This document shows positions 49,429 to 50,835 of a stretch of 64,000 nt of DNA, in pieces (position 1 is the stretch's first letter; the number at the start of each line of letters is the position of its first letter). Position numbers and translations under genes: made by a program. The notes under the pieces are model-generated. The model had not been told where the DNA came from. It saw nothing but the letters and a program-made list of their open reading frames with translations, and ran no database searches. The DNA lies in contig CAZNOH010000003.1 in assembly GCA_964574655.1 (NCBI GenBank), positions 58,149 to 122,148 of the forward strand. Reading direction: 5' to 3'. Source of the stretch: an uncultured Candidatus Saccharibacteria bacterium (lineage in GTDB: Bacteria; Patescibacteriota; JABMPQ01; JAQVVF01).

Positions 49429-50835
49429 TTAATTTTGACTTTTACCTTTTATAGCAATCATCAATCCAACAATTACCCAAAAAAGTAATGCCAAATCATT
49501 TTTAAAATATGGCACATCAACTAATCCATGCATAATTATGCAAACCATTGCTCCCATCAGCGCAATTTCCAATTTCCAATTTCCAATTTCCAATTCCGTC
49601 TCAATCTGTACTTTGGAATTTGTTATTTGTTGTTTGTTTGGAATTTGGAATTTGGAATTTGTTTGTATCTTGTATCTTGTTTCTTTAAACCCAGAAATAA
49701 AGAACAAAACAATAATCCACAAAAAGGATATTAATCCAAGCAACCCTGTCTCTACCCAAAAATTCAAAATAATATTATGTGGATAAACCAAAATTTCTGT
49801 ATGTTTATTTAATTTATAATTTGGATACGCCTTTTGAAACCCAGCTAATCCGACACCAAAGATCGGATTTGCTTTTAACAAATTCCAAGTTCCTTCCCAA
49901 AGAACAATTCTCACATCACCAGATGTTTCTTGAAAAGTAATAATTGGCACAACTTTTTTTGAAGTTGCTGGAATAATTAAAACTAATATTATTGAAACAA
50001 TTGCCAATCCAACAACAAACCATCGCCACTTTGTGAACATCAACATAAAAAACAATCCAACAAAAATTCCAAAAATCGCACCTTTTGACACAGCCAAAAT
50101 GACTGCCAAAATTCCTAAAATAATAACCACTAAACAAAAAAGTAGATTAGAAATTTGGATTTTGTCATTTGACATTGATTCGGAATTCGGAATTCGGAAT
50201 TCGGAATTAAAAACATTTTTAAAAATACCAATCAGCAATCCCAAAAAAAGCGTAATAATTGGAGCTAGATAAAGTCCAATTGCGTTTGGGTATCCATAAA
50301 AACTTGTTGCTCTTTTTAAATTCGGCAGATTATAATCAACCGGAATATTTATATTAAAAATATATTGGACAATTGTTGAAATAGATATGAATAAAGAAGA
50401 AAATCCTAATGCCCAAATTATAATTTGCAGTTGTTTTTTTGATTTTACAACGTCAAGCAATATTAAAAAAACAAGAAATGGCTCTACAAAATAAGCTCGC
50501 CATCTTCCTAAAGCATGTTTTAAATCAACCGAAACAAAAACTGAAATAGTTGCCGCTAACAAAAAAAGCAAAATTGGCAACCACCATTTTTTCAGTAATT
50601 CTCGCCAATTATCAAAAGTTGATTTAACTTCTTGATTTACTATTTTTTTAATAACAAAAACCAAACTCAAAGTTAAAATTAATAACTCCAAAAAAGTTGA
50701 TGGCAAAGGACCGATATCCAATCTTAGCAAATAAAACGGCATACCAAAAACAACTAAGCCTAAACCAAAATCAAGTCTTTTCCAAGAAATAATAATAAAA
50801 ATAATAATTACGATGCTAGACACAATCCATAACAT
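49429..50835 (-). CDS. O-antigen ligase/polymerase-family membrane protein (Wzy_C) carrying in-frame repeat-element insertions
   Basis: YPHNIILNFWVETGLLGL (H-N-x-x-L...E-x-G-x-x-G) motif. More than 10 TM. Repeat element C (49563-49686) and an ATTCGGA 7-mer array (50178-50208) are translated in-frame. Confidence 0.6.
   Translation of the reverse strand: MLWIVSSIVIIIFIIISWKRLDFGLGLVVFGMPFYLLRLDIGPLPSTFLELLILTLSLVFVIKKIVNQEVKSTFDNWRELLKKWWLPILLFLLAATISVFVSVDLKHALGRWRAYFVEPFLVFLILLDVVKSKKQLQIIIWALGFSSLFISISTIVQYIFNINIPVDYNLPNLKRATSFYGYPNAIGLYLAPIITLFLGLLIGIFKNVFNSEFRIPNSESMSNDKIQISNLLFCLVVIILGILAVILAVSKGAIFGIFVGLFFMLMFTKWRWFVVGLAIVSIILVLIIPATSKKVVPIITFQETSGDVRIVLWEGTWNLLKANPIFGVGLAGFQKAYPNYKLNKHTEILVYPHNIILNFWVETGLLGLISFLWIIVLFFISGFKETRYKIQTNSKFQIPNKQQITNSKVQIETELEIGNWKLEIALMGAMVCIIMHGLVDVPYFKNDLALLFWVIVGLMIAIKGKSQN
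49563..49686. repeat. Palindromic MITE-like repeat element, copy C (inside a coding sequence)
   Basis: ccaatttccaatttccaatttccaatt ... ggaatttggaatttggaattt inverted 7-mer arrays plus a ttgtttgtatcttgtatcttg segment shared with copies A and B. Confidence 0.55.

Follow-up and report, generated by a model that had tools for sequence, protein, structure and literature searches.

Introduction

Rickettsia palindromic elements (RPEs), palindromic repeats some 100-150 nt in length, have no transposase and occur both between genes and in frame within unrelated housekeeping and metabolic genes (PMC10969869). Here we analyze a 64,000-nt stretch of DNA (hereafter, the window) from an uncultured Candidatus Saccharibacteria bacterium (contig CAZNOH010000003.1, positions 58,149 to 122,148), in which a family of repeats built from 7-nt words (heptads) has two intergenic copies, A and B, and a third copy, C, that is translated within a gene for an O-antigen ligase-like protein of the Wzy_C family. 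Like RPEs, the heptad family is palindromic, no transposase was found for it, and its in-frame copies form tolerated peptide segments. The likeness is one of description. The hosts belong to other phyla, with several phyla for the heptad family; a make-up of 7-nt words around a fixed triplet is not part of the description of RPEs; and one strand of the heptad elements gives a single peptide whichever of its three frames is read. By analogy, RPEs may be regarded as its closest functional analogue.

Prokaryotic transposable elements of the miniature inverted-repeat type (MITEs), such as Correia, ERIC, BOX and RUP, are reported to be small, non-coding, inverted-repeat, multi-copy sequences that are sometimes intragenic (PMC10969869; PMC3184786). 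The heptad elements resemble them in small size (124-132 nt, against about 50-500 bp for MITEs), absence of coding capacity of their own, terminal inverted repeats, the presence of three to four copies in 64 kb and presence/absence variation among relatives. They differ in having ragged ends and inner arms that share periodic triplets but not true complementarity, and no cognate insertion sequence or transposase was found in the scanned window open reading frames (ORFs), in the flanks of 119 listed loci or in the one cargo ORF checked. A first-pass annotation of the window called the elements MITE-like; small size, inverted repeats and presence/absence variation fit this description, but the label is an analogy, with no transposase-bearing parent or clear target duplication found.

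Repetitive extragenic palindromic (REP) sequences and REPINs are reported to be intergenic, non-autonomous hairpin doublets mobilized by the REP-associated tyrosine transposase (RAYT; PMC3116915). The heptad elements are likewise hairpin-forming, dispersed and non-autonomous, but REPs are short GC-rich palindromes flanking a RAYT gene and largely lineage-specific, whereas the arms described here are AT-rich heptads; no RAYT-type gene was found in the scanned window ORFs or near the 119 listed loci. Short tandemly repeated repetitive (STRR) sequences are cyanobacterial heptanucleotide repeats that form tandem arrays of one unit; these and the small dispersed repeats nested in them were reportedly treated by Mazel in 1990, Vioque in 1997 and Elhai in 2008. 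Shared with the heptad family are the 7-nt unit, intergenic hairpin-like contexts, small palindromes nested in heptad tracts and residence inside a functional gene, which in the STRR case is reportedly the RNase P RNA. The units and hosts differ, and in the heptad family unlike words follow an order, the arms are inverted and the terminus is conserved. By unit length, STRR tracts would be its closest analogue. Finally, heptanucleotide repeats are reported to underlie phase variation in other bacteria (PMC12721329, PMC4692102). The ligase gene recalls such contingency loci in having perfect units that are not multiples of 3 nt within a surface-structure gene, but it has few units, the same arrays occur in essential genes, and they are embedded in a larger conserved element.

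Three copies of one repeat family

The window has a GC content of about 32%, with a negative and monotonic GC skew throughout, and the names of its homologues mark it as a Patescibacteria (CPR) contig. At all three loci, the coordinates and letters agree with those given in the first-pass annotation. Allowing up to three mismatches, the 22-mer TTGTTTGTTTCTTGTATCTTGG has five matches in it, against 0.00 expected from 100 shuffles of the window. These matches lie in the following elements:

7524-7647: copy A, hairpin of 124 nt; CAA arm 7524-7579, TTG arm 7606-7647
11556-11687: copy B, hairpin of 132 nt; arms 11556-11612 and 11631-11687; in the spacer between the M23-peptidase gene and tsaD
49563-49686, minus strand: copy C, heptad-repeat element of 124 nt, translated in frame as amino acids 384-425 (KETRYKIQTNSKFQIPNKQQITNSKVQIETELEIGNWKLEIA) of the ligase

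Each arm of A has the 22-mer, at 7530-7551 on the minus strand and at 7620-7641 on the plus strand, and so does each arm of B, with no mismatches (11561-11582, minus strand; 11661-11682, plus strand). In C it occurs at one end (49659-49680, plus strand, two mismatches) and has no complementary copy, so that the earlier claim of a shared segment with its complement in all three copies holds for A and B but not for C.

We also searched for heptad runs, defined as at least five CAA or TTG triplets at 7-nt spacing, with Markov shuffles as the null. The runs in the window fall in A, B and C, apart from one weak chance-like run; the expected numbers per window are 0.16 for CAA and 0.02 for TTG, and control triplets gave 0-3. 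All three copies share one layout, namely a (N4-CAA)n arm, a short centre and a (TTG-N4)n arm, and a single 4-nt step inside the arm yields the core CAAACAA / TTGTTTG. On the basis of the 22-mer matches and the heptad runs, A, B and C are members of a single family of dispersed, non-coding inverted repeats, as had been proposed from the letters alone.

A and B lie between co-directional genes and form long, imperfectly paired hairpins, with AT-rich arms of 57-58 nt that are 82-88% complementary. The spacer that holds copy A is 144 nt long and separates a PfkB-family gene from the one after it. Both copies fold strongly (-35.8 kcal/mol, z -6.2 for A; -64.5 kcal/mol, z -12.6 for B). The first-pass annotation had suggested that they may also serve as terminators. 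However, a terminator scan flags neither copy and no T-run follows either, while in the evident terminators of this genome a short GC stem precedes a T-run; examples are called on the plus strand at 49354-49370 and on the minus strand at 49402-49387. In relatives, moreover, the genes at these sites overlap or are 7 nt apart. We therefore rejected a terminator role for the AT-rich 57-nt arms.

A candidate 7-bp target-site duplication surrounds B (ATTAAAT at 11552-11558 and ATCAAAT at 11696-11702), and empty sites hold a single ATCAAAT. The window also contains a probable fourth, more diverged member:

59949-60083: hairpin in the yidC-yidD spacer; 65-nt arms, 75% complementary, z -6.1

Its words are CTAAATx and xxxxCAA heptads, and the yidD-yidC spacer of a locus from another genome (L004; such loci are numbered L, and their proteins P) also holds a CAA/TTG heptad hairpin.

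The copy within the ligase gene

49429-50835, minus strand: host gene, O-antigen ligase/polymerase-like membrane protein of 468 amino acids; single uninterrupted ORF
49613-49686, minus strand: CAA arm of copy C, 11 heptads in gene orientation (a plus-strand TTG run of 11)
49650-49679, within the CAA arm: outer 30 nt of copy C, canonical family terminus CAAGATACAAGATACAAACAAATTCCAAAT
49594-49612, minus strand: centre (loop) of copy C, 19 nt between the two heptad runs
49563-49597, minus strand: second arm of copy C, (TTGGAAA)n, plus-strand CAATTTC x4.7; encodes ELEIGNWKLEI; 100% match in Tandem Repeats Finder (TRF)
50178-50208, minus strand: ATTCGGA x4.4 array, (TCCGAAT)n on the gene strand; in frame as …NSEFRIPNSES…, amino acids ~210-220; 100% match in TRF

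The host gene encodes a Wzy_C domain (PF04932) at amino acids 237-372 (E 2.8e-22; 79.6 bits against a 31.7-bit cutoff). Protein P0001, from a 161,998-bp NCBI contig, is 100% identical to the window ligase, and an exact-protein look-up of the latter returned no record. As the annotation had stated, C is translated in frame: across 49686-49561 the ligase frame reads ...KETRYKIQTNSKFQIPNKQQITNSKVQIETELEIGNWKLEIA..., within a single 468-amino-acid ORF and not a split gene. The conserved C-terminal motif was said to lie intact downstream of C. This is true of the VDVPYFKNDL motif and the last helices, but the Pfam Wzy_C domain lies upstream. The motif G-VD-PYFKNDL, 3' of C in the gene, is invariant in 22 homologues, and the alignment shows the conserved periplasmic-loop and C-terminal features of the family, with R309, H345, YPHN and VDVPYFKNDL invariant.

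On the gene strand, C starts with CAAGATACAAGATACAAACAAATTCCAAATTCC…, continues through 11 CAA heptads and the 19-nt centre, and ends in (TTGGAAA)x4. Its arrays, reported earlier as CCAATTT/GGAATTT, are confirmed by TRF at 100% match (CAATTTC x4.7, TTTGGAA x3.6). The canonical terminal heptads are missing from the second arm, which pairs at six of seven positions with the TTTGGAA array. In layout, C is a member of the heptad family minus the outer words of its second arm. Its hairpin is weak (fold z about -2.9 on either strand), and with one canonical arm and a 6/7-complementary array as the other, C is not a clean palindrome, although it had been called palindromic. In the family-wide fold set its z is -4.2 and that of the L004 ligase copy is +0.8; the intragenic copies are the least structured. 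The 30-nt terminus of C, on the other hand, is found exactly in eight listed loci labelled Omnitrophota, Acidobacteriota and Planctomycetia.

An AlphaFold model of the ligase has a predicted TM-score of 0.83. The predicted local distance difference test score (pLDDT) falls below 50 only at residues 211-222, 345-350 and 386-418, and the two array segments are the sole long stretches below this value in an otherwise confident model. Residues 393-419 form a coil linking helices H355-392 and H420-439. Given the low pLDDT and the coil between helices, both inserts are predicted to be disordered inter-helix loops, and their K/R content suggests that these loops are cytoplasmic.

Presence and absence among relatives

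We compared the ligase with its orthologues, six sequences that are about 76-81% identical outside two hypervariable loops and highly conserved on either side of them. Apart from L110, a chance-match locus, all sequences examined in this study are metagenome assemblies. Copy C occupies loop 2, which differs among genomes as follows:

Window and L001: GATACAA-GATACAA-ACAA-(ATTCCAA)3-4
L002 and L004: A-rich CAA heptads
Window and L004: identical (TTGGAAA)4 second arm
L007: short TTG-type array only
L006 (P0004, the shortest orthologue): insert missing, ~30 amino acids shorter
More remote homologues: loop short in most, other low-complexity inserts in a few

Thus, loop 2 contains a heptad insert in five of the six orthologues and none in P0004, and the ligase frame is kept in all six. 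In a neighbor-joining tree calculated without the loop columns, (window,(P0004,(P0003,P0002))),(P0006,P0005), P0004 is nested among insert-bearers, for which the simplest reading is an ancestral insert that was then lost in P0004. C had been taken for an insertion of the A/B kind, but a fresh one is contradicted by the inserts at the same loop of the other orthologues. Judged from these alignments, C is an old, remodelled copy, one arm of which is canonical and the other a homogenized array.

The arm types are discordant with the tree, in that P0003 resembles P0005. In addition, the L004 ligase copy resembles the intergenic copies of its own genome (CAAACAAATTACAA…), and the ligase copies of the window and L001 have GATACAA termini, as do A and B of the window. 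This discordance, together with the genome-specific resemblance, suggests exchange between copies or mosaic recombination. As for loop 1, the ATTCGGA array was described as separate from C. It is indeed in frame, but (TCCGAAT)4 of the window aligns with TTTCAAA-type heptads in two orthologous loci, L002 and L006, while its counterparts in L001, L004 and L007 are other arrays. Based on this alignment with the CAA-type heptads of orthologues, loop 1 is a second heptad-repeat site. The unit AAACACAG (KHRNTETQKH) is shared by short-period arrays of the window and loop 1 of the L007 ligase.

Around sites A and B, synteny with relatives is conserved. At the B site of L128 and L129, the M23-peptidase stop codon overlaps the tsaD start (TAATG; …ATCAAATAATG…), whereas the window has a 140-nt spacer, and L127 has a different CAA/TTG heptad hairpin there. 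At the A site, the 144-nt spacer of the window compares with 7 nt in L128 and L129. These two sites are insertion/deletion polymorphisms at the level of the compared sequences. Conversely, the WzyC-VTT junction is empty in the window, L001 and L002 but holds a hairpin in L004, the CAA arm of which is read as an 18-amino-acid C-terminal extension.

Architecture of the family

The outer end of the family is conserved (CAAGATACAAGATACAAACAA … TTGTTTGTATCTTGTATCTTG), although the ends are ragged in that the number of terminal heptads varies. The inner end is frequently closed by CCAAAC…GTTTGG, and the centre ranges from ~5 to >400 nt. About half of the 135 motif matches listed have an inverted partner within 450 nt, which gives elements of ~90-460 nt; most members are 90-200 nt long. 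The 49 elements with short centres have a median fold z of -6.1.

Inward of the core, the information content is confined almost entirely to CAA. The two arms agree at CAA in 92-96% of cases in the first two inward heptads and in 62-92% in the third, against 31-54% at spacer positions over the first three, and words such as ATTCCAA, GCACCAA and GCATCAA recur in differing order between arms. The words GATACAA, GAAACAA and ATTCCAA are stop-free in all six frames, and (CAAGATA)n gives one cyclic peptide, QDTRYKI, from all three frames. The CAA-strand peptide is hydrophilic, while the TTG strand yields the hydrophobic LYLVSCI. Since the canonical words are free of stop codons, a frame-keeping copy can survive within a gene, provided that the loop it enters is tolerant.

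Some elements enclose other sequences. In L073 (Omnitrophota), a 461-nt element around 1459-1479 (minus strand) contains a complete gene of 115 amino acids belonging to PF05635 (E 7e-18), the 23S rRNA intervening-sequence / four-helix-bundle family. In L043 and L035 (Acidobacteriota), an apparent truncated relative lies beside an arm, although the L043 fragment has no significant match. With one confirmed case (L073) and no cluster, we rejected PF05635 as regular cargo in favor of occasional nesting.

A GC-rich palindrome, CCTGCCTGCCGGCAGGCAGG, and its variants are nested in heptad tracts of L002 (10001-11404; ligase loops 1 and 2). This palindrome (CCTGCC…GGCAGG) is translated in P0003 as …TGRQV… or …SGRQI…, and it is also found in heptad hairpins of other phyla (L032, L052, L064 and L097). 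A one-armed variant occurs in Acidobacteriota (L092, L113, L115, L122 and L067), ~130-300 nt 5' of the motif, with a conserved GC-rich GATCGCC…GGCGATC stem followed by at least 10 TTG heptads. It recurs in four assemblies at 74-91% identity and may be a distinct structured element.

Distribution beyond the source genome

To survey the family, we used exact matches to the degenerate 21-mer TTGTTTGTWTCTTGTWTYTTG in a collection of species-representative genomes; all counts given are among the matches listed. The 21-mer is present in at least 119 stretches, labelled as many Patescibacteria lineages, Omnitrophota, Acidobacteriota, Saganbacteria / WOR-1 and Eisenbacteria. It is also found in metagenome-assembled genomes (MAGs) labelled Planctomycetia or Gammaproteobacteria, and the taxon labels of some MAGs carrying it may be unreliable. 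Matches in Clostridium, Hoylesella, Flavobacteriales and Caldisericota appear to be due to chance. The carriers in Acidobacteriota are UBA6911-like, with loci of 55-59% GC, including some from contigs of 1-4 Mb, and at least seven or at least eight loci in a single assembly. As judged by sequence identity, the family occurs across phyla.

Rfam 15, applied to the whole window at the gathering threshold, detected tRNA-Glu only. Permissive Rfam scans of B and L008 gave sub-threshold matches to miRNA-precursor-like hairpins only, and a match to a Wolbachia small RNA (25 bits against a 65.3-bit cutoff) represents generic hairpin similarity. A peptide search with the translated element yielded no word-sharing candidate, and HMMER with the 42-amino-acid element peptide returned two uninformative matches, probably as a result of low-complexity filtering. 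Literature searches found no published description of the heptad family; two papers matched by sequence, on S. aureus typing and on a Vibrio transcription factor, appear from their titles to be unrelated.

In-frame copies in other genes

In other genomes, the motif lies in frame within six Pfam-confirmed genes, namely those for MurB, asparagine synthase (AsnB), RecG, a Mur ligase, Pyr_redox_2 and UvrA, where it gives peptides such as KIQDTKYKIQTNNK or ETRYKIQDTNKSQ. In low-GC ORFs with the motif, the CAA strand is mostly the one that is read, and it may be favored in genes owing to its peptide. Read-through ORFs in the Acidobacteriota loci of 55-59% GC were not counted, as long spurious ORFs are expected there. 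In L093, two adjacent type IV pilin-like genes each have a whole heptad element (around 7057-7077 and 7743-7763) in the predicted ORF, upstream of the prepilin …GFTLIEL… (…TKTQDTRNKIQTIWNLRYWNLIVSWKLGFGTSSNAGFTLIEL…), and the arrangement in L014 is alike.

Arrays of other unit types are in frame in the window genes for ValRS, TsaD and glutamate dehydrogenase:

21559-24051, plus strand: ValRS; in-frame short-period arrays at 22165-22228, 23382-23420 and 23710-23764
11701-12744, plus strand: TsaD; in-frame arrays at 12070-12103 and 12585-12626

In the ValRS orthologues of L128 and L129, gaps of 14 and 9 amino acids fall on two of the array positions. The NIRISEFPNFQFP loop of TsaD is missing in P0124-P0127 and larger in P0123.

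Other repeats in the window

A second repeat family comprises TTTTTAC-type 7-nt arrays of ~50-64 nt that are 66-88% alike, at seven loci (4474-4528, 14188-14240, 27925-27979, 36079-36132, 42169-42222, 46083-46108 and 49402-49451). All seven are T-rich on the plus strand, irrespective of how the flanking genes are oriented; one array is in frame in glutamate dehydrogenase (KKLKVKSKKVKATSKNSK) and another adjoins the ligase stop codon. A third class has a period of 8, with CAATTnnn or its complement repeated three to seven times (8613-8656, 23710-23764, 28506-28531 and 54948-54981), and the array in ValRS is in frame (KQLNNETKKQFNNLTIEQ). Further intergenic arrays at 3472-3551, 6236-6272, 28462-28498 and 55018-55047, with units including ATGAATT x4.9, the ACTTTATA-type x4 and TTAGTTAA x6, lie mostly directly 5' or 3' of genes.

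A 91-nt intergenic hairpin at 29060-29150 (-37.6 kcal/mol, z -7.5), with ACGAAT/GCAAAT words, is unrelated to the CAA/TTG family. The segment 47111-48052 is an island of 55% GC with long frames on both strands (313 and 293 amino acids) and no Pfam or Rfam match. It is not homologous to the 265-amino-acid gene at the same position in L001. Foreign DNA, a chimeric join and an RNA or protein gene that has escaped recognition are possible explanations. Two overlapping minus-strand ORFs, 17776-18105 and 18077-18766, match positions 2-110 and 141-213 of the Beta-lactamase2 profile; these complementary halves suggest a single gene that a frameshift or an error in sequencing has broken in two.

Discussion

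We consider it probable that the heptad elements constitute a dispersed, non-coding, hairpin-forming, non-autonomous and insertion-like repeat family, of which C is a translated and remodelled survivor. Based on the presence/absence of copies at tight junctions, the genome-specific sub-types and the cross-phylum identity, the family appears to be mobile and may have spread by transposition-like insertion. In this scheme, hairpins would insert whole at tight gene junctions, with each genome having its own sub-type. C would have arrived, in an ancestor of the clade, in a short ligase loop that joins the last transmembrane helices, to be translated as a disordered linker. It would since have gained and lost 7-nt units, shed one terminus and probably exchanged sequence with other copies, and through this remodelling it would have lost most of its hairpin potential. 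By analogy, the best-supported reading would be one of RPE-like palindromic repeats with an unusual heptad build.

Several observations weigh against mobility. As the annotation had noted, no transposase was found nearby: a Pfam scan of 53 window ORFs, 14 of which had no family match, showed no transposase, integrase or reverse transcriptase. The scan left out ORFs 3-221, 62454-62978, 63064-63438 and 63527-63889, ValRS and glutamate dehydrogenase. We also conducted all-against-all clustering of 1,490 ORFs flanking the 119 listed loci, which revealed no recurrent gene family within ~4 kb; the largest cluster comprised five loci. A linked autonomous gene was dropped, as no ORF family occurs in more than five of the 119. 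Among 2.9 million viral contigs there were three matches only, and phage carriage was also dropped. Around A and around the L004 insertion at 7225-7317, no convincing target-site duplication was detected, and the polarity of the presence/absence cases, gain as opposed to precise loss, is itself something that we infer. The copies counted in the source genome are those within the 64-kb window. Furthermore, the inner heptads are not complementary between arms and resemble a shuffled small vocabulary, which is unlike classical elements with terminal inverted repeats and could indicate a host-encoded function, in binding or in structure, that selection maintains. Local slippage also plays a part, as seen from the perfect arrays of C and loop 1, and the other window arrays, with periods of 7 and 8, do not follow the CAA/TTG rule.

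A wider proposal, possible but on balance doubtful, is that the elements represent an undescribed cross-phylum class, conserved through a 7-nt-periodic triplet code in place of base pairing or the terminal repeats to which classical transposases bind, and sometimes carrying small cargo such as PF05635 genes or GC-rich mini-palindromes. Being stop-free and giving one peptide from every frame of the CAA strand, they would act as a general source of low-complexity linkers in proteins of Patescibacteria and other small-genome bacteria. The code would be read by a putative oligomeric or filament factor, which, speculatively, would contact one CAA per 7 nt.

In another explanation, the hairpins are cis-acting RNA or DNA signals of the host, such as stems for RNase III or mRNA stability or sites for an oligomeric CAA-reading protein, that are kept by selection, with C as a by-product. 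Ring-shaped RNA-binding proteins such as HutP and TRAP recognize regularly spaced triplets. It is in keeping with this idea that strong hairpins stand between co-directional genes, that conservation lies on the periodic triplet and not on pairing, that 21-30 nt of sequence are kept across phyla, and that the yidD-yidC hairpin is present in both the window and L004. However, close relatives do without hairpins at the same junctions, where the genes are translationally coupled; the in-frame copies in housekeeping genes would make a processing site harmful; and the flanks of the 119 listed loci yielded no candidate binding protein. Neither an Rfam match nor a terminator-like character of A and B was seen. 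We therefore think host function unlikely as the explanation, although it is compatible with mobility.

A history without any insertion, in which 7-nt slippage in AT-rich DNA produced simple-sequence repeats in situ and the likeness of C to A and B arose by convergence, seems to us quite improbable. Proto-arrays are missing at the empty sites of A, B and the L004 copy, which are just overlapping or 6-7-nt junctions, and C has the complete arm-centre-arm layout, with a terminus identical over 30 nt to other phyla and words in the conserved order of the family. The canonical terminus of several words is also seen at many unrelated sites, which speaks against convergence. Slippage does account for the perfect CAATTTC x4.7, TTTGGAA x3.6 and ATTCGGA x4.4 arrays and for the variation in unit number and sequence at the same loops of orthologues, and many unrelated period-7 and period-8 arrays exist in the window. 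It accounts, in other words, for the remodelling and not for the origin.

It is very improbable that the perfect 7-nt arrays serve as a contingency switch, toggling the ligase reading frame by one-unit changes. Although the unit length is not divisible by 3 and two perfect arrays lie within one surface-polysaccharide gene, the units number only 3.6-4.7, all six orthologues are in frame, and equivalent arrays occur in ValRS, TsaD, MurB, RecG and UvrA, where an off-state would be lethal. Nearly all of the sequences come from metagenomes, in which low-complexity repeats assemble poorly, but misassembly or misbinning of such sequence into the gene or into unrelated genomes has a negligible chance of being the explanation, given that inserts occur at the same codons in independent NCBI, JGI, ENA and Logan assemblies, that the frame is preserved, and that the Acidobacteriota copies lie in loci of 55-59% GC, mostly from contigs of 1-4 Mb.

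If the heptad elements are an RPE-like family that spread by insertion, they would be a second, independent instance of selfish DNA inside proteins, after the RPEs of Rickettsia. Both the 7-nt code and the near identity of the termini found in Omnitrophota, Acidobacteriota and Patescibacteria are unusual and raise the question of a shared factor or a route of transfer that maintains them. In practice, the elements can mislead gene callers, through starts inside arms and C-terminal extensions, and can distort alignments and structure prediction, while their presence or absence could serve as a strain marker. For the Patescibacteria themselves, the finding means that tiny, gene-dense genomes hold repeats in gene junctions and in the loops of essential proteins, including an aminoacyl-tRNA synthetase, TsaD, MurB, RecG and UvrA, and it would offer a concrete explanation for many of the odd low-complexity inserts in the predicted proteins of this group.

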